DNA of 64,000 nt, from positions 55,560-119,559 of IMG/VR virus record IMGVR_UViG_3300003177_000005. One strand, given 5' to 3'. A program made the translations under genes and the position numbers. This DNA is from a virus. Positions 14,691 through 56,085 of the stretch are shown here, in pieces. Below the pieces are notes generated by a model, which had not been told where the DNA came from, made no database searches, and was given only the letters and a program-made list of their open reading frames with translations. Numbering within the stretch: the first letter of the stretch is position 1; the number at the start of each line of letters is the position of its first letter.

Positions 14691-15247
14691 ATGTGGTGGA
14701 AGAGGGTTAAATATCTTGATGAACATAAAAAGGATAATAAATTTAAAAACCTATCTTGGTATAAGGATGACATATATCTGTCGCCTTATGTACCATATAG
14801 GGAAGTAAAGGAAATCAAGTGGCTACTAATATTAAATCATAACGATCAAATATTAGATACCCTTAATAAAGGGTATGAGTTGTTTAAAAGAGAGAGAGAA
14901 GTGGTGGTGACCACTCTCTCTTTTCTAAAATTGAAGCATTTCTAGCTCTAGATGACCAGAGGTTAGAAGTTGCTGATTTTATGGAAAAGGCTGGTTTCAA
15001 AGAACATGGGACCACCTTCCATAAGGGGTGGATAAGAGGTGTAAACTCTAAAACTGTCGGTGGTAACGACGGTTATAGAGGTTACTATAAACAAGAGGAG
15101 ATTTTATGGGTGTCTCCTCTTGACGCATTCAAAACTTTATACCTCTCAGGGTATAAAGAATACGAAGTGATGTTGGAAAAAGGTGAGGAGTGGTATGACT
15201 CCTTTGTATCCTCTGTAACAATAGTGGATGTTGTTTATGAGGCGTAA
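14691..15247 (+). pseudogene. One ~184-aa gene split at an (AG)5 repeat (ORFs 14691..14945 and 14981..15247)
   Basis: Deleting one AG at 14889-14898 gives ..ELFKRERSGGDHSLFSKIEAFLALDDQRLEVADFMEKAGF..; the second ORF has no RBS. Confidence 0.6.
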
Positions 15248-15338: not shown

Positions 15339-16112
15339 ATGGCATTAACAGCTATGTATATGTTACATAGAGTTTTACACAAAGATATCGATACCAGGAT
15401 ACCTGGCGGTGCAACTAATATAAAGATCAAGTACCATGGTAAGTGGTACAAACAAAAAGAGTTAAAAAAACTGTGGTCTATCAAAGGTAACAAAATTACC
15501 CATAGACCTAATTACAAGGTTATTAAACACCCTAAGAACATAAGACGGTTACATGTTCTAAAAGGGCTAGCAAAGATATATAAATATGGTGACAGAATAG
15601 ATAATGTATATGAAATTACTAAATTTATATTTAAAAAGGTAGACACATATAGTAAGTCTCACCACTATTTTAATAGGGGTAGACATAAACTATATAAAGT
15701 TTACAAAGAATTGGAGTACTTAAGAAGTCACTCCAAAAGGTATTCCTCGTCTTATAATAACTGGACAACTCAAATAATCAGGATTGGTCAGAGTTTCCAA
15801 CAAAATTATAATATGAGTATAAAAGAGTACGAACATTCTCGTGCAAATAGTAGGGACCGTCACTACTATACACACCAAGATATACGAGCTGTATCAAAAA
15901 GAGTGGCTCGTATAAAGAGAATGTTCAGAATAAAAGGTGACTGGTATTATGCTAAAACATATAATAAATACCATCACCATAGTGAGTATATAGCTCGTAT
16001 AGATAGAGCTAAAAAATATACTCATAAACGACACCATAAAAAACTAAACAAGATGTTATTATACCATCAGCGTAAACAGATGGAATACGCTGTTGCGTTG
16101 CGTATGGTATAG
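15339..16112 (+). CDS. Very basic His/Tyr/Lys/Arg-rich protein
   Basis: Own TATATT promoter (15291-15313), GGAGGAG RBS and terminator (16109-16151); 20 His in 257 aa. Confidence 0.8.
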   Translation: MALTAMYMLHRVLHKDIDTRIPGGATNIKIKYHGKWYKQKELKKLWSIKGNKITHRPNYKVIKHPKNIRRLHVLKGLAKIYKYGDRIDNVYEITKFIFKKVDTYSKSHHYFNRGRHKLYKVYKELEYLRSHSKRYSSSYNNWTTQIIRIGQSFQQNYNMSIKEYEHSRANSRDRHYYTHQDIRAVSKRVARIKRMFRIKGDWYYAKTYNKYHHHSEYIARIDRAKKYTHKRHHKKLNKMLLYHQRKQMEYAVALRMV

Positions 16113-16217: not shown

Positions 16218-16727
16218 ATGATTCATTTAGATTTTTTCCAGGAAATGTTTACTCCTGGTAAAGTAACTGCAATTTTAGACAATGAGGATGGTTCTCAAAC
16301 AGCCTCATTAGTTCTAGATACAGGAGAGTTAGTAGAAGCTCCTGTGATTGATGGTCTTAGTATAGGTGTTACTTATCTAGTAAAAACTGAAGATATAGTA
16401 ACTGAAAGTGGTAAAGGTGTTGTCGAGAATCTTTACAAAGAAGATGCAAAAGAGATATATATTCTTAGCATCGACCTTAATCACAACACTAAGATAACAG
16501 ATTATCTTAAGGTAGAAAAAGTTGGTCTACCTGAAGATGAAAATACAGAGTATATAGAACTAAACGTAGATGTTTTTGATAGAGAGATTCATACCCCTAT
16601 AAATAAACTTCTACAAAAGCATCTTATTTATTCAGTATCTGTCCAAACAGATACAAAAGGAGATAATGATTACAATAAAGATTTGCTTGATAAAGCAGTA
16701 AAAGAGCAAATAAAGTTAGCAGCATAG
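16218..16727 (+). CDS. Hypothetical acidic protein ending in -LAA
   Basis: AAGGA RBS favours the ATG at 16218; promoter-like TATACATATATAATTTA upstream. Confidence 0.75.
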   Translation: MIHLDFFQEMFTPGKVTAILDNEDGSQTASLVLDTGELVEAPVIDGLSIGVTYLVKTEDIVTESGKGVVENLYKEDAKEIYILSIDLNHNTKITDYLKVEKVGLPEDENTEYIELNVDVFDREIHTPINKLLQKHLIYSVSVQTDTKGDNDYNKDLLDKAVKEQIKLAA

Positions 16728-16785
16728 TTTTTACTATGTTGTTAACATATTAATCATTTTATTTATATTATTTTTTTCTATTTAG

Positions 16786-17185
16786 TGATGGGCATCGTTT
16801 CCAGTCAGAATGATCAAGTAGGTATAATTTAGTTATATGCGAACCACATTCCCATACAGGAAAACTGCCCTAGTTTGTCTCGTAAGTTCTAGTAGTATAT
16901 ACAATATCTTTGCCTTTATGGTGTAAGTGCGATAATATATATGGGGGATGTTGGTAACGCAACATCTTGGTTCTAGAGGCAACTTACCTCGATAGTGTCC
17001 TAAGCTGAGCATCCTATAGGTCTTCGGATCTATAGGGTGTGAGGTGGATGGGTCAGAGGAAAGTTGTAGACGAATGCACCAGTAACTGCTGGTGAAATCC
17101 AATCAGAAGTCGTGGGGGAAGTGGGGGTACGATCAAAGTGGCCCAAAGGGCATCCGCTTAGACAGCAAGATATCGCTAGATATCA
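16786..17185 (+). ncRNA. Candidate large structured non-coding RNA (~400 nt), family unknown
   Basis: GC-rich island with no credible ORF; 13-bp stem with a cUUCGg loop (17010-17039), several other hairpins and long-range complementarities with G-U pairs. Confidence 0.65.
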
Positions 17186-17560
17186 ATCTATGTTATACTT
17201 ATATATAAGACATATATAATACTTAAACTAAAGAGATCTAATAATTTATATATAAACAAATAATAAACATATAAGATCTTAATAATATATAAAAGATAAA
17301 TATAATAAAGGTCTATCAGTAATAATCCTAAAGTTATGTCATAGACAGATATAGAGATCTTAATAATAAATAATAAATATAAAGATCTAAATAATTATAA
17401 CATATATACATAAATAATAAAATATATAATAAACTAATATATAGATAAGAAAATATCTTAATAATATAAAAGAGATCTATAATCATAGTTAATAAGACAT
17501 AAAGGTAGTAAATTTAGTTAATACTACTATAAGATATACTATGACATAGATAAGTAAAAG
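17186..17560. repeat. AT-rich array of AGATCT(W)AATAAT-like repeats, origin-like
   Basis: AGATCT at 17234, 17274, 17355, 17383 and 17473, plus ATATCT at 17453; A-rich top strand; no ORF. Confidence 0.65.
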
Positions 17561-17580
17561 AAAGTTAAAATAGAGTATAT

Positions 17581-17620
17581 TTTATCTATATATTATTTAG
17601 TTAGTAATGTCATATTACTA
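17581..17620 (+). promoter_or_regulatory. Putative early promoter with compensated hairpin TAGTAAT/ATTACTA
   Basis: TATCTATATATTATTTAGT-TAGTAAT-GTCAT-ATTACTA. Confidence 0.65.
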
Positions 17621-17649
17621 AAGTTAAAATTTAAATAAGGAGTTAAGTT

Positions 17650-18021
17650 ATGAAGGTTGAGTTAGTTAAGTTATCAGAGAGTATCAGTTCTGTTACTCCA
17701 TTTGAGTTCTTTATGTTAAAAGAGAAAATAACAGATAGTTCTCTTTATATTTTTAAAGAAGAGAACCTTGTCGATATCAAAAGTAAGAGGGGTAAAGTAT
17801 TAAATACTTCTTTTGTAGATATTAATTTAGGTATCAATGTAAATATTAGTTATTACGTTATGAAACAAGATGATATCTTTATTGTATATGTGATTGATTT
17901 TTTGGTTGAAAAGGTTTTAAGTGATGAGGTTTTTGTTAATAAGTTAGAGCTCGTTGAAAAAACATTAGTCAAATTTAAAGATGTCTATAATAAAGAAGAG
18001 TTTAAATTATTAGGGGTTTAA
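17650..18021 (+). CDS. Hypothetical protein; ORF 18079..18369 continues in the same frame past the TAA
   Basis: AAGGAG RBS; the frame after TAA 18019-18021 is open (EDNVYKKHLLKRLELNLFK..) to 18369. Confidence 0.6.
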   Translation: MKVELVKLSESISSVTPFEFFMLKEKITDSSLYIFKEENLVDIKSKRGKVLNTSFVDINLGINVNISYYVMKQDDIFIVYVIDFLVEKVLSDEVFVNKLELVEKTLVKFKDVYNKEEFKLLGV

Positions 18022-29339: not shown

Positions 29340-32306
29340 ATGATTATCAATGTTACAAAAATAGATGGACGAAAAGAACCACTAAATATAGAGAAGATAA
29401 GAAAATATACTAAAGGGTATGTACCAGGTAATGATGAAAATATGGTAGCTGAATTAGAATCTGATGTTCAATTACATTTTAAAGATGGGATGAGCACAGC
29501 TGATATACATGATGCCCTTATACGAGAGTGTACACTTAAAACTGATGTTGGTAAATTAGAGTGGGATAAATTTGCTAAAAACTTATTTGTTTCCAATTTT
29601 AAATATAGACTAAAAAAAGATAAAAATATATTTGATCTTAAATCTTATATAAGAGAAAATAAAGATAGACTTAATGATCGTATACTTTCATATACTGAAG
29701 ACGAACTAAATCTTTTAAAAGAAGAGATTAATGAGGATAATGACTTTAAAGAATTTACTTATAATGGTATCGTTACATTACTTAATTCTTGGGCAAATAA
29801 AAAAGGCGATAGTATTATAGAAACTCCTCAATATCTTTATATGGGTTTAGCTATGTTTTTGGCTAGTAATGAAGAAAGAGATAGTTGGGTTTATTGGTCT
29901 AAGAAGTTCTATTATGTTTTAACTAATCATTATGCATTAATGGGTACACCAACAATGAGTAAATCTAGATCAAAAAGACCACAGTTATCTTCTTGTTATG
30001 TTGGTGCAACTCCAGATAGTATCGAAGGTATAATGGATGCTAATAAGACTATCTCTATACTATCAAAGTTTGGTGGTGGTATCGGTTGGGATTTTTCTCC
30101 AATACGAAGTGTCGCATCTGAGATAGATGGTTATAAAGGTGTAGCTGGTGGTTCAATTCCATTCCTAAAAATAACTAATGATGTAACATTAGCTGTAGAC
30201 CAATTAGGTTGTGTGGTTAAGGATAGTTATGTAAAAGTTATAGATGATATTAATGAAATTAATGAAAGAATTATTCCTATTTATAAACTAAAAAAGGGTG
30301 ATTTGATTAAATCTTACAATCATACTTTAAATAAAGTTGAATATCAAACAGTATTAGAAACATATGACTTAACAGTAGAGATTAAGGACCAGGTTTTAAT
30401 AGTATTCGAAAATGGCGTAAAATATTTAACATCTGCTTGGCACCCTGTTCCAAAATTGATAGATGGTGAATATAAATATGTTCGAGCTGATAGTATAAAA
30501 GAAAATGATATAACTGTTGGTGATAATGGTGAAGAGTTAAAAATTGTTAGTGTTAAACACGGTGAAGAAACCGGTAGTAAAACAAATGTATTTTTCGATA
30601 TTACAGTTAAGGATAATAATAACTATTTCTGCGCATCGTTTAATTCGGATAATAATATTTTCGGACTTATTCACAATACTAGACCAGGGGCCTTAGCACC
30701 ATATCAAAATACTTGTTCATTAGAAATTATTGATTTCCTAGATTTAAGAAAAAATTCTGGTGAAGAGCGTAGAAGAGCACACGATTTATTTTTAGCAGTT
30801 ATTTTAGAAGATAGATTTATGGAAGCTGTGGAAAATGATGAAGAGTGGTTGTTAGTAGACCAATATGAAGTTCCTGAATTAATACACGCACAATCTGGTG
30901 AAGTGTTTAAAAGTAAATATGAAGAAACTTTACAAAGATTTAGAAACAATGAGTTAAAATTAGGTAAATTAGTTAGTGCTAAAGATTTATGGAAAAAGAT
31001 AATAAGAAGTTATTATGAAACTGGTTATCCATTCTTATTCTTTAAGACAACAGCTAATGAAAAACATATGGGAACTGGAACTATCCGTAGTAGTAACCTT
31101 TGCACAGAGATTTTTCAAGCTACAGCTCCTGCCGAATATGATATGGTTGTTTATATGGAGACAGGAAATAAGATAGAATCTATCTATATACCTAGAACAT
31201 CATTAATCAAAATAGGTGTAAGAAATAAAGATGGTAAGATTAAATATAGATCAGGAACAATTAAGGAGATAACAGCTGCAACAGACTCAGTATATGTTAC
31301 ACTTAAAAATCCAAATGATAAAGAAGATGAATGGACAGGTCAAGAGTTTATTTTAGAGAATATTCTAAATGCAGAGTTAGTTAAAGATAAAGTTTCCGAA
31401 GAGTTAGCAGTTTGTAACTTATCATCTATTAACTTAGCTAAGATAAATACAAAAGAAGCTTTTGAAGAAATTATACCTATTGTTGTTCGTATGTTAGATA
31501 ATGTTATTGATCTGAACTTCTATCCAGTATTAGCAGCGGCTCTAACTAATAAACGAACTAGAGCTATTGGCTTGGGTGTAGCTGGTGAAAATGAACTAAT
31601 AGCAGGTAAGGGTATACATTATGGTTCAGAAGAGCATAAAGAGTTCGCTAATGAGCTTTATGAGATGTTTGCATATTACACAATAAAAGCTAGTGTTGAC
31701 TTAGCTAAAGAAAAAGGTAAGGCACCTGCTTTTGATGATTCTAAATGGGCTAACTTTGATCATAAAGAGTATAGTACATTAGCATCAAAGATTCCTGAAG
31801 ATGAATTAGATATACCTAAACCAAAATACTTTATGGACTGGGTAGGTTTAGAAAAAGATATTAGAGAGAATGGTATGAGAAATATTTATCTTATGGCTAT
31901 TGCTCCTACTAGTACTATTGCTAGTGTACTTGGAACAACAAGCAGTATCTCACCAATAATTAATAAGTTAACATTTGAATCTAATTCTAAAGATCATCTA
32001 TTGGCTAAGTACCCATCTAACTTATCAGCTGAAACTTGGAATTTCTATACAAATGGATTTAAGATAGATCAAATCGAAGCTATAAAGGTTAACGCTATTC
32101 GTCAGCGATGGATTGACCAAGGTATATCTTATAATGTTAGAGTATTACAAGGAGATGTAACTGGAACAGACTTACATAATATCTATATGACAGCTTGGAA
32201 ATATGGTATGAAATCAACATACTATTTAAATAGTATACCAAAAGAAAAAGAAGAGGAGAAACAAAAATATAAAGAAGATCAAATAACTTGTGTAAACTGT
32301 GAATAA
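29340..32306 (+). CDS. nrdA: Class Ia ribonucleotide reductase alpha subunit with intein
   Basis: ATP cone, TPTM, QLSSC, GGGIG, SNLCTEI, CNLSSINL, RAIGLG, IAPTS, KSTYY, C-terminal CVNC. Confidence 0.97.
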   Translation: MIINVTKIDGRKEPLNIEKIRKYTKGYVPGNDENMVAELESDVQLHFKDGMSTADIHDALIRECTLKTDVGKLEWDKFAKNLFVSNFKYRLKKDKNIFDLKSYIRENKDRLNDRILSYTEDELNLLKEEINEDNDFKEFTYNGIVTLLNSWANKKGDSIIETPQYLYMGLAMFLASNEERDSWVYWSKKFYYVLTNHYALMGTPTMSKSRSKRPQLSSCYVGATPDSIEGIMDANKTISILSKFGGGIGWDFSPIRSVASEIDGYKGVAGGSIPFLKITNDVTLAVDQLGCVVKDSYVKVIDDINEINERIIPIYKLKKGDLIKSYNHTLNKVEYQTVLETYDLTVEIKDQVLIVFENGVKYLTSAWHPVPKLIDGEYKYVRADSIKENDITVGDNGEELKIVSVKHGEETGSKTNVFFDITVKDNNNYFCASFNSDNNIFGLIHNTRPGALAPYQNTCSLEIIDFLDLRKNSGEERRRAHDLFLAVILEDRFMEAVENDEEWLLVDQYEVPELIHAQSGEVFKSKYEETLQRFRNNELKLGKLVSAKDLWKKIIRSYYETGYPFLFFKTTANEKHMGTGTIRSSNLCTEIFQATAPAEYDMVVYMETGNKIESIYIPRTSLIKIGVRNKDGKIKYRSGTIKEITAATDSVYVTLKNPNDKEDEWTGQEFILENILNAELVKDKVSEELAVCNLSSINLAKINTKEAFEEIIPIVVRMLDNVIDLNFYPVLAAALTNKRTRAIGLGVAGENELIAGKGIHYGSEEHKEFANELYEMFAYYTIKASVDLAKEKGKAPAFDDSKWANFDHKEYSTLASKIPEDELDIPKPKYFMDWVGLEKDIRENGMRNIYLMAIAPTSTIASVLGTTSSISPIINKLTFESNSKDHLLAKYPSNLSAETWNFYTNGFKIDQIEAIKVNAIRQRWIDQGISYNVRVLQGDVTGTDLHNIYMTAWKYGMKSTYYLNSIPKEKEEEKQKYKEDQITCVNCE
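30210..30677 (+). mobile_element. Mini-intein (156 aa) in NrdA
   Basis: Inserted between VDQLG and TRPGA; starts with Cys (CVVKDS), block B TSAWHP, block F FDITVKDNNNY, ends His-Asn before Thr; no endonuclease domain. Confidence 0.92.
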
Positions 32307-55239: not shown

Positions 55240-56085
55240 ATGAGTATAAGTGAGTTTTTAAAGTCAACCTTTACTGGTAAGACTATTATTAAAAAAGAAG
55301 AAGTCAAAAAACAATTTGCAAATATTTGTTTAGACTTTAAAACATTAGTAGAAAAAGATTATAGTAATGTTGAAGTTAAGTCTAATACATTGTTAAATAA
55401 TTTCTTTAAAGCTTTGGATGTTAAAGATAAAACATTCTTTAGTGGTGTTAAGGAATTAGTAGAGAGTGACATACTTAAATATGAAGATGAATTTAATAAA
55501 GGTATTGATAAATACTTATCAAATTCTTTTATAGAAGATCAAGCAACCTTAATAGATGGTATGATAATTTCATATATAACTAACCTTTCAGCTTTCTATA
55601 ATTATTTAGAAGATTTAGTTTTATATACTATCTATTATTCAAGAGGTGAGGATTATCTATCTAAAGCTACAACAAAAAGAATAAGTCAAAACTATAATTT
55701 CTTTTATAGCACAGCTAAAGATTTAAAAGATGGTGGTTTTCTAGATTTTATTCATAACTTGGATAAAATAGAACCAGAAACTATTCAGGATACGGATAAT
55801 GGTATACTTGATTTTAAGATATCACATATTTTTAAATCTAATCCTATTAGTATAACTAATGACTTTGTTGGTAATCTTTACTATCATCTTGGACGGTTTT
55901 TTGTAGAACAAGATTTAGCTAAAGCCGACGATTATGAAAACAAGAAACGATTATTAGAACTAAAACTTTTAGAGTTAAAGAATAAAGATGTTAAAGATCG
56001 TAACATTGAGAAATCGATAGAATATTATACTAAAAAGATAAAAGAGTATGAAAGAGATATTGAAGAATTGAGGAGTGTTAATTAG
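55240..56085 (+). CDS. Head protein (phiKZ gp90-like)
   Basis: NLYYHLG followed by a C-terminal coiled coil (KRLLELKLLEL..IEYY). Confidence 0.65.
   Translation: MSISEFLKSTFTGKTIIKKEEVKKQFANICLDFKTLVEKDYSNVEVKSNTLLNNFFKALDVKDKTFFSGVKELVESDILKYEDEFNKGIDKYLSNSFIEDQATLIDGMIISYITNLSAFYNYLEDLVLYTIYYSRGEDYLSKATTKRISQNYNFFYSTAKDLKDGGFLDFIHNLDKIEPETIQDTDNGILDFKISHIFKSNPISITNDFVGNLYYHLGRFFVEQDLAKADDYENKKRLLELKLLELKNKDVKDRNIEKSIEYYTKKIKEYERDIEELRSVN

Follow-up and report, generated by a model that had tools for sequence, protein, structure and literature searches.

A GC-rich, ORF-free island with three adjacent predicted RNA hairpins in an AT-rich jumbo phage genome, a candidate early non-coding RNA

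A GC-rich island in the AT-rich genome of a phage lacks coding capacity and contains a core whose RNA folds with an excess stability that is specific to the plus strand. The island lies at positions 16786-17185 of the window, the whole 64,000-nucleotide stretch of DNA that was analysed, which comprises positions 55,560 to 119,559 of the IMG/VR virus record IMGVR_UViG_3300003177_000005. The source is an uncultured phiKZ-like jumbo phage, probably of the nucleus-forming type. Only about 150 of the proposed 400 nucleotides are convincingly structured, and these form three adjacent hairpins. Our tentative reading is that the island represents all, or only the end, of an early transcription unit without an ORF, which would yield a plus-strand non-coding RNA. 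Its transcription, the ends of the RNA, and any function the RNA may have are inferred from sequence only.

The island has a GC content of 0.48-0.52 in a genome of 28% GC, and its 150-nt GC maximum, 0.52 at 16917-17216, is exceeded nowhere on the 119,559-bp contig (contig GC 0.281), in agreement with the initial annotation, which had described a GC-rich island in an AT-rich genome. The longest plus-strand ORFs in the island are 38 and 35 aa, each plus frame contains at least three stops across it, and a Pfam search with an 89-aa ORF on the minus strand gave no match. Codon periodicity is absent from 16786-17185 (chi2 4.3, p 0.64) and from the core (chi2 5.5). For reference, 74 coding 250-nt windows of the genome have a median chi2 of 27.3 and a 5th percentile of 12.4, and small GC-rich ORFs of the same phage are periodic, with chi2 values of 19.8 and 22.8. 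The earlier call of a non-coding island is borne out by the short plus-strand ORFs, the missing periodicity, and the unmatched minus-strand ORF. A comparison with the ORFs and DNA of the contig revealed no paralog of the island and no internal similarity to it, which makes the island single-copy. Its orientation is that of all neighbouring early units.

The core (16936-17185) folds on the plus strand with a z-score of -5.58, none of 200 shuffles being as stable, and with -5.27 in an independent run, whereas the minus strand reaches only -1.94. Together with the 13 G-U pairs among the 56 pairs in 16940-17100, this strand difference sustains the original preference for a plus-strand RNA. The full 400 nt are modestly unusual (z -3.06 with 1/100 shuffles as stable; z -2.82 with 2/200), and the 5' 210 nt (16786-16995) have a z-score of +0.23, with 113/200 shuffles folding equally well. 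Around the island core, the only 120-nt windows that stand out are 16940-17059 (z -3.9) and 16980-17099 (z -5.7). Values range from +1.0 to -0.1 for 120-nt windows between 16740 and 17019, from -0.3 to -1.8 for those between 17020 and 17259, and from -0.9 to -1.5 for windows in 17060-17219. The excess stability is limited to about 16940-17099, and some 250 of the 400 nt carry no excess structure. By raw minimum free energy (MFE), the island ranks third lowest among 1,908 250-nt windows on both strands, but it falls outside the top 30 of the same 1,908 windows when MFE is regressed on composition. More weight is given to the shuffles, since the regression is anchored by a handful of GC-rich windows that are structured themselves. 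Other early transcripts of the same phage, coding ones included, fold even more strongly, with z-scores of -5.5 to -11.7. The early messages of this phage thus tend to fold strongly in general, and folding alone marks no special RNA gene.

The initial annotation had proposed an RNA of about 400 nt with two nested multibranch domains, built from five local stems and four long-range pairings. All nine listed pairs are found at the positions given for them, and the larger architecture fails: the signal comes from a three-hairpin cluster of about 150 nt, and the long-range helices are disfavoured, with ensemble probabilities of 0-0.18. Three of the local stems survive, namely 17010-17039 (p 1.0), 16947-16966, and 17077-17094, the last two at the probabilities listed in Table 1 for H1 and H3, while GAGG/CCTC (p 0) and GCCC/GGGC (p 0.08-0.36) do not. 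A fold constrained to the proposed model has an energy of -109.6 kcal/mol, compared with an MFE of -126.4 and a shuffled mean of -108.6 to -109.1. Since the constrained energy is close to the shuffled mean, the proposed architecture is no better than that of shuffled sequence. The long hairpin H2 and the proposed long-range pairing exclude each other at 16996-17005 and 17046-17050. The parts of the locus are listed in Table 1.

Table 1. Parts of the locus from 5' to 3', in window coordinates (p, probability of the hairpin in the folding ensemble).
Feature	Position	Strand	Description
Terminator-like hairpin	16715..16746	+	Closes upstream 188-aa orphan gene; 14-bp stem, UUUU loop; spans TAG stop at 16725-16727, followed by AU-rich sequence
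Degenerate early-promoter module	16753..16800	+	ATCA box, AT-rich core, and AGTGA...ATC, with the spacing of true copies
5' segment	16786..16935	+	GC 0.34-0.38; no ORF, no periodicity, no excess folding
Hairpin H1	16946..16967	+	8 bp, 6-nt loop; p 0.79-0.87 in two sequence contexts
Hairpin H2	16979..17067	+	36 bp, irregular, six segments (7+4+3+5+3+14), cUUCGg loop
Hairpin H3	17077..17094	+	7 bp, 4-nt loop; p 0.96-0.97
G-rich 3' segment	17100..17168	+	Two G5 runs (17114, 17123); ambiguous fold
Hairpin H5	17169..17184	+	Palindromic GATATC arms, 4-nt loop; p 0.96-0.99; no U-run after
ORF-free AT tract	17186..17580	.	AGATCT(T)AATAAT repeat array adjoining the island
Clear early promoter, 5' hairpin, and Shine-Dalgarno	17583..17649	+	Serves next gene (123 aa, orphan); bounds the locus

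Hairpin H2 contributes most of the z-score of the core, and all of its segments have p values of at least 0.82. Its pairs comprise 14 G-C, 13 A-U, and 9 G-U with no A-C oppositions, and they are interrupted by a GA/GA 2x2 internal loop, an A-A mismatch, and small bulges. CTTCGG caps a hairpin at two of its nine sites on the contig, where the stems measure 14 bp (in H2) and 8 bp. The nine G-U pairs without any A-C opposition, the tandem GA/GA, and the cUUCGg cap fit selection on RNA pairing better than they fit a DNA palindrome or decay without strand preference.

The hairpin that closes the upstream gene has a free energy of -18.3 kcal/mol (RNAfold), and the 120-nt window around it, 16660-16779, has a z-score of -3.9. 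A scan of 16400-17800 for consensus terminators returned none; it missed this hairpin because no T-run follows immediately. The degenerate promoter module was scored with an early-promoter matrix built from 15 clear promoters of this phage. The weak promoter copy noted earlier is marginal: its ATCA and AGTGA...ATC boxes are correctly spaced, and its matrix score of -0.9 bits places it 54th among about 239,000 positions, compared with at least 15.7 bits for the 20 clear sites; the promoter of the next gene scores 31.5 bits. The 5' segment may be a leader or a spacer. Three of the eight GGGGG loci of the contig lie within the island. The AT tract that follows has the lowest GC content of the contig (0.143 over 300 nt), holds 5 of the 23 contig copies of AGATCT in 17234-17473, and is possibly a separate cis element.

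The phage's own hairpin-rich early leaders and small early genes, on the same strand and in the same region, share with the island a promoter-like module and, after it, the AGTGA...ATC box of a 5' hairpin, a GC content above that of the genome, and folding far beyond that of shuffles. The island differs from these early cassettes in that it has no ORF, periodicity, terminator, or sequence similarity, and in that its promoter is degenerate. For the early promoters themselves, the comparison class is that of the phiKZ/AR9-type virion RNA polymerases. The reading as an ORF-less early RNA, which we prefer with reserve, draws on the top GC content of the contig in a region free of ORFs and periodicity, on the plus-strand z-score of the core and its third place in MFE among the 1,908 windows, and on hairpins H1, H2, H3, and H5, which form with p 0.79-1.0 in two sequence contexts. 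It draws further on the make-up of H2 (9 G-U, 0 A-C, GA/GA, cUUCGg), on the 14-bp hairpin that ends the upstream gene before a correctly spaced promoter-like module, and on an orientation shared with the neighbouring early units of a phage whose early messages are strongly folded. Against this reading stand the lack of a homolog in the searches and of variants in four runs, a promoter score far below those of the 20 functional-looking copies, the missing terminator, the roughly 250 of 400 nt that are unstructured, the coding regions that reach z-scores of -5.5 to -11.7, and the absence of RT, Ro60, and TnpB-type partners (46% of the genome) beside neighbours that are orphans.

Under the preferred reading, the RNA would be an early product that starts at the degenerate promoter (about 16753-16790) or else results from read-through past the upstream hairpin. 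It would fold during transcription into the adjacent hairpins H1, H2, and H3 (16946-17094), with H2 as a very stable, irregular 36-bp stem under a UUCG cap. The RNA would most likely act like the hairpin-rich leaders and bodies of the other early messages of the phage, as a nuclease-resistant structure that may bind or titrate a protein that recognises structured RNA, e.g., a host RNase or another RNA-binding factor. Base-pairing with a target is probably not its mode of action. If it is a real early non-coding RNA, it would join the structured RNAs of jumbo phages that are not yet catalogued, a set still small but growing, and would provide a handle on the heavy folding of the first transcripts of this phage, which could serve, for example, as protection from host RNases or defence before a nucleus-like compartment exists. 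As a single-genome orphan, the island has its present value as a lead.

The same features can be explained in other ways. A rather unlikely alternative takes the island for a decayed early-gene cassette that has lost its ORF, promoter quality, and terminator, and whose residual hairpins have no function now. Intact cassettes of this phage combine an early promoter with a hairpin leader, a hairpin-packed GC-rich small ORF, and a terminator, with examples at genome position 44870 (z -11.7, 72-aa ORF) and window position 14811 (z -5.5, 88-aa ORF); measured against these, the degenerate promoter, the absent terminator, the unstructured 5' 150 nt and 3' 70 nt, and the lack of homologs all suit a relic. 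Yet no leftover periodicity is seen (chi2 4.3-5.5), every plus frame holds three or more stops, the island resembles no ORF or DNA of the contig, its GC content remains at 0.48-0.52 against 28% for the genome, and the 36 pairs of H2, with nine G-U and no A-C, are not what unconstrained decay favours. It is less probable still that the island is a cis-acting 3' element in the message of the upstream 188-aa gene that sets mRNA stability and is no separate RNA gene; read-through RNA would then end or be processed at H1-H3, for instance because H2 is cut by an RNase III-type enzyme or because 3' exonucleases are blocked. The strand shared with the upstream gene, the marginal internal promoter, the upstream hairpin without an immediate U-run, and the length and irregularity of H2 would all accord with such an element, but 220 unstructured nt separate the stop codon from H1, the upstream hairpin already has 14 bp and -18.3 kcal/mol, and the terminators of other genes in the phage are compact, made up of a hairpin and a T-run, and immediately precede the next promoter. 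We regard it as very improbable that the island is chance or compositional, i.e., acquired GC-richer DNA with hairpins that have no selected role. An orphan sequence among orphan neighbours with a z-score of only about -3 over the full 400 nt is compatible with this; nevertheless, the core z-scores of -5.3 to -5.6 (0/200 shuffles), the strand asymmetry of the signal, the nine G-U pairs and zero A-C oppositions of H2, and the lack of a match in phage or plasmid collections count against it.

The sequence next to the island raises a further alternative, an origin-associated transcript: transcription through the G-tract segment into the AGATCT/AT tract would form an R-loop or activate an origin. 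Analogous arrangements are ColE1 RNA II and the T4 origins that combine a promoter with an unwinding element (oriF/oriG). The GC maximum of the contig adjoins its GC minimum (0.143), five of the 23 AGATCT copies are clustered in 240 bp as part of a 13-nt unit that repeats, in a genome in which GATC is under-represented (166 vs about 301 expected), the island contains three of the eight G5 loci, two of which precede the AT tract by about 60 nt, and no terminator stands between the RNA and the tract. The island thereby resembles ColE1 RNA II and oriF/oriG as a folded G-tract RNA upstream of AT-rich repeats with transcription pointing in, but it differs from them in that neither a skew inflection nor an initiator gene is seen and two relatives show no analogue. 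Cumulative GC skew follows gene orientation without an inflection at the island, although skew is a weak test for an origin here because it follows transcription in this phage. No initiator gene was identified, the neighbours having no recognisable families; a comparable AGATCT array is absent from two related records examined in full; the spacing of the repeats is irregular; and nothing links the hairpin cluster to priming. Among the marks of an origin, an AT-rich tract with repeated sites beside the putative transcript is present, while a strand switch and an initiator were not found. On this balance, we hold an origin-associated transcript to be quite improbable, although the island could point to a replication origin if it is tied to the AGATCT/AT tract. 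A term search of a review of nucleus-forming phages (PMC12908238) gave no mention of a replication origin. It is unlikely, if less so, that the island and the AGATCT/AT tract constitute one module undescribed for jumbo phages of the nucleus-forming type, in which an early ORF-less structured RNA would represent either a new trans-acting protein-binding or decoy class or a G-tract origin primer or activator at an unwinding element.

Known RNA families do not account for the island. Rfam (4,227 families) gave no match at gathering threshold over the whole contig, which answers the earlier proposal to look there for a known family, and at E<=10 in 16600-17700 it returned only a 13-bit chance match to rpfG on the opposite strand. 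Rfam 15 presumably includes GOLLD, ROOL, and HEARO. The initial annotation had found no fit to tRNA, tmRNA, RNase P, or group I intron, and this stands: ARAGORN reported no tRNA and no tmRNA in the 64-kb window and the remaining 55.6 kb of the contig, RF00010 (RNase P) at E<=10 had no match on the contig and matched 11 of 14 control genomes, no RNase P family appeared in the E<=10 scan of 16600-17700, and RF00028 (group I intron) at E<=10 had none on the contig among 14 scored candidates. One could also take the island for a highly diverged or degraded form of a known catalytic RNA, chiefly a group I intron: of 50 related records, 17 contain RF00028 matches, and both non-coding GC islands of one relative, G003, are weak RF00028 matches of 25 and 34 bits; such introns of related jumbo phages also resemble the island in being GC-rich and non-coding within AT-rich genomes. 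The present island, however, has no covariance model or profile match and interrupts no reading frame. RF00028 is unmatched on the contig and, with permissive filters, also in 16600-17700, and a profile HMM of 28 introns from the relatives gave no match in 16500-17800 with filters off (nhmmer --max, E<=100). The upstream ORF stops at its own TAG inside the 14-bp hairpin, and from the island to the next promoter no frame that could serve as a downstream exon stays open for more than about 27 codons. These results largely refute a group I intron, and with RF00010 negative as well, a catalytic RNA of a known class is extremely improbable. Purine-rich strings that resemble core elements of RNase P or group I introns have no support from any model.

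Large phage non-coding RNAs such as GOLLD and ROOL, whose functions are unknown, are likewise GC-elevated, ORF-free phage islands. The island differs from them in being unmatched in Rfam, single-copy, and known from one genome, and its roughly 150 nt of simple tandem hairpins show no multi-domain or pseudoknotted fold. A look-up by sequence gave nothing similar in the other genomes surveyed. Small non-coding transcripts, some of them intergenic, are encoded by phiKZ and 201phi2-1 (PMC11512511). In the part of that report considered here, they were filtered to less than 250 bp, most derive from 5'UTRs, a single one, located upstream of a tail gene, is described as conserved, and none is shown to match the island by homology or position.

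Homologs of the island, which the initial annotation had suggested seeking, were not found in 80 related phage records or in the sequence collections with BLAST, nhmmer, or a covariance model. At a distant blastn setting, the island is unmatched in phage and plasmid collections. A two-box pattern occurs at six loci in viral_contigs, none with extended similarity by nhmmer, and exact 20-mer and 22-mer scans of metagenome_contigs and genome_contigs gave one locus each, both by chance. When 50 of the 80 related records were compared by BLAST, 21 of the 50 gave matches at E<=1 of 14-30 nt, attributable to chance only; of the 32 listed places, the five inspected are ordinary, apparently coding sequence. 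The covariance model (161 nt, a single sequence with its MFE structure) matched none of the 80 related records at E<=1 (0/50 and 0/30) and only itself, at 197 bits, on its own contig. With filters off, its best score in 200,000 of the 206,244 bases of G003 was 15.8 bits (E 0.11). Built from a single sequence, the model is weak for distant relatives and is limited evidence of absence. An apparently recurrent match of relatives to 16890-16907 was set aside: in the relatives it falls on AT-rich palindromes, and the contig itself has the motif only once. A GC-rich then AT-rich region of another relative, considered as an analogue, consists of ordinary coding genes and then a gap.

The four neighbouring proteins searched are all orphans. 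Those of 188, 123, and 417 aa have no relative besides themselves, Pfam gave no match for 10 neighbouring ORFs, and Atlas look-ups of the 257-aa and 417-aa proteins returned only low-TM, low-confidence rows. RVT_1, TROVE, and Cas12f1-like_TNB are absent within the 46% of the genome searched. Related loci sought through the 188-aa protein and an RNA polymerase subunit were not found. The host probably belongs to the Campylobacterota, judging only by the name that one source gives to a protein of the phage. Four DNA runs from two samples of one study contain fragmentary contigs that are identical to the window, without variants. The nearest relative by DNA polymerase has 77% identity and is represented only by a 7.8-kb contig; the polymerase lies 28 kb from the island.

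The GC-rich island at window positions 16786-17185 is noncoding, as the initial annotation had proposed. The contig has a GC content of 28.1%; its 150-nt maximum (0.52) falls at 16917-17216, and its minimum (0.143 over 300 nt) directly adjoins at 17192-17500. All + strand ORFs of the island are 38 aa or shorter. Three-base periodicity is absent, with a chi2 of 4.3 (p 0.64) across the 400 nt and 5.5 in the core (16936-17185), compared with a median of 27.3 and a 5th percentile of 12.4 for 74 coding windows and 19.8-22.8 for the phage's own small GC-rich ORFs. Because this test is strand-independent, it also disfavors an 89-aa minus-strand ORF, for which Pfam gave no family match. The island sequence is identical across the four DNA runs that contain it (one study, two samples).

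A structured RNA of about 400 nt had been annotated here, but the folding signal is a block of about 150 nt. Over the full 400 nt, the + strand gave a z-score of -3.06 (1 of 100 shuffles) and, on repetition, -2.82 (2 of 200), and the minus strand gave -1.25 and -1.41. The 5' part (16786-16995) has a z of +0.23; the core reaches -5.58 on the + strand (0 of 200 shuffles; -5.27 in a separate run) versus -1.94 on the minus strand. Among 120-nt windows, the only outliers are 16940-17059 (z -3.9) and 16980-17099 (z -5.7), and windows between 17020 and 17259 range from -0.3 to -1.8. The split regions and the 120-nt windows thus confine the excess stability to the shorter block.

Pairing probabilities were taken from the thermodynamic ensemble in two sequence contexts, which were mutually consistent, and yield the hairpins listed in the table. 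The H2 helix comprises 14 G-C, 13 A-U, and 9 G-U pairs with no A-C opposition, and its continuity is broken by small bulges, an A-A mismatch, and a 2x2 GA/GA loop. If a DNA palindrome decayed by strand-neutral transitions, G-T and A-C oppositions should arise at similar frequencies. The presence of G-U and absence of A-C in H2, an asymmetry to be read with the caveat that the fold itself was picked for maximal pairing, together with the weak minus-strand z, therefore favors pairing at the RNA level on the + strand. Two of the nine CTTCGG sites on the contig cap a hairpin: that of H2 (14 bp) and one after an ORF (8 bp). The latter, at genome 17363 (window -38196) directly 3' of ORF 16444-17361, is probably a terminator. 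All nine motif pairs of the initial annotation occur where it placed them. Its long-range helices have ensemble probabilities of 0-0.18 and compete with the lower stems of H2, its GAGG/CCTC stem has a probability of 0, and a fold constrained to its full model is 17 kcal/mol less stable than the MFE, at the level of the shuffled mean; the long-range model thus has no support, although thermodynamics alone is not decisive against it.

Hairpins of the island, promoter-family sites, and group I intron (RF00028) matches in related phage records
Feature	Position	Strand	Description
H1	16946-16967	+	ensemble p 0.79-0.87
H2	16979-17067	+	long irregular hairpin; 7+4+3+5+3+14 = 36 bp, cUUCGg cap; all segments p >=0.82
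H3	17077-17094	+	ensemble p 0.96-0.97
H5	17169-17184	+	ensemble p 0.96-0.99
Promoter family	window 14555, 15293, 16171, 17583, 22968 and elsewhere	+	ahead of ORFs
Further promoter-family sites	genome 15614, 16387, 44762, 47361		
RF00028-related places	G003:10912-11265, G003:138791-139274		in relatives; e.g., L131-L160 among records G003-G050

Strong folding is common in the early region of this phage. Five other windows match or exceed the z of the island, at genome 44870 (a 72-aa ORF; -11.7), window 15811-16060 (within a 257-aa ORF; -7.6), genome 47495 (-6.5), genome 35870 (-6.4), and window 14811 (-5.5); three windows chosen arbitrarily lay between -0.5 and -2.5, and the raw MFE of the island ranks third of 1,908 windows. 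The island thus joins several other early RNAs with heavy folding, and what sets it apart is mainly the lack of an ORF. The segment at genome 35870-36119 (window -19689; 250 nt, 24% GC), with its strong + strand fold, is by regression among the most stable minus-strand windows too, which suggests a long near-perfect palindrome. The 257-aa ORF (window 15339-16112) has its own promoter and Shine-Dalgarno sequence. Its product is an orphan protein, extremely basic and rich in K, R, H, and Y, with an Atlas model of low confidence (pLDDT 0.48); besides the very strong fold of its message, the ORF shows unusually weak codon periodicity (chi2 of 19.2 over 774 nt, whereas the next gene reaches 87.7 over 510 nt).

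The early-promoter family consists of an ATC box, a T-run, a 17-nt AT-rich core, and an AGTGA-N5-ATCACT hairpin, which follows the promoter in most copies. A relative of the core, TAACCATATATTATT, was found only in G003, G004, and G010 among the 50 related phage records searched. When the contig is scored with a matrix derived from 15 copies, 20 sites reach at least 15.7 bits. The weak promoter copy annotated before the island (16764) is indeed unusual for its location, ranking 54 of about 239,000 positions, but at -0.9 bits it is far weaker than real promoters. Upstream, a 14-bp hairpin (-18.3 kcal/mol) that spans the stop codon closes the 188-aa gene; no terminator-like site was found 3' of the island, and the next clear promoter downstream, at 17583, scores 31.5 bits. 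A putative island RNA could start near 16785 or originate by read-through.

Rfam 15 gave no family at the gathering threshold across the whole contig and nothing meaningful at E<=10 in 16600-17700, in agreement with the earlier description of the RNA as unclassified. The contig, 46% of the genome, contains no tRNA or tmRNA, no match to bacterial RNase P RNA (RF00010), and no reverse transcriptase, Ro60, or TnpB-type family. RF00028 matches 17 of 50 related records, as many as 9 times in a single one, which makes group I introns very common among related jumbo phages, and both noncoding GC islands of G003 are weak RF00028 matches; a group I intron was therefore tested seriously. RF00028 had no match on this contig at E<=10, a profile of 28 introns taken from relatives had none in the island at E<=100 with filters off, and the island interrupts no reading frame. 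No homolog of the island was found in phage and plasmid collections, by BLAST of 50 related records, with a single-sequence covariance model in 80 related records, in a filters-off search of 200 kb of G003 (the closest relative to share the promoter), or in exact-word scans; the contig holds no paralog, and the three neighboring proteins searched for relatives are orphans.

We tentatively favor, at somewhat less than even confidence, an ORF-less early transcript made from the island, whose functional part, if any, would be the hairpin cluster H1-H3, serving as a stable RNA with a protein-binding or protective role. That the island is a decayed early cassette is a distinctly less likely explanation, and a 3' element of the upstream message is improbable. 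Chance or acquired DNA is more doubtful still, and a divergent known ribozyme is the least credible of all.

An origin-associated transcript, which we rate as improbable as the 3' element, draws on the adjoining tract. Of the 23 AGATCT sites on the contig, 5 are packed into 240 bp of this ORF-free stretch (17186-17580), in a repeated unit (A)AGATCT(T)AATAAT accompanied by one ATATCT variant; genome-wide, GATC is rarer than expected (166 occurrences versus about 301), and 3 of the contig's 8 G5 loci lie in the island. These features make an origin or protein-binding array plausible; an unwinding element is a further possibility for the tract. However, GC skew has no inflection, the tract has no analog in G003 or G010, and no initiator gene is recognizable.

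The viral contig spans 119,559 bp, with the window covering bases 55560-119559, and is 46% complete by CheckV. Its products include phrog_2987, a split multisubunit RNA polymerase subunit; phrog_3011, a DNA polymerase; and a ribonucleotide reductase. Among cultured phages, the RNA polymerase subunit has its best relatives in phiKZ-like jumbo phages, with identities of at most 27%; judging from this protein, the phage is therefore a distant uncultured member of that group. Small RNAs of less than 250 nt have been reported for phiKZ and 201phi2-1 (PMC11512511); in the literature searched, at the level of listings and abstract openings, no comparable large structured RNA is described for phiKZ-like phages, and a term search of a review (PMC12908238) gave no mention of noncoding RNA, structured RNA, or a replication origin. 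The nearest relative of the DNA polymerase (77% identity) is known solely from a 7.8-kb contig. The next share about 35% identity, and one of them, P0008 (36%), lies on a 214-kb contig with its protein source-named Campylobacter coli, a hint that Campylobacterota may be hosts of this phage group. In the large subunit of the ribonucleotide reductase (window 29340-32306), the family match covers residues 1-290 and 446-988, and the roughly 150 unmatched residues between these parts could be an insert or intein.
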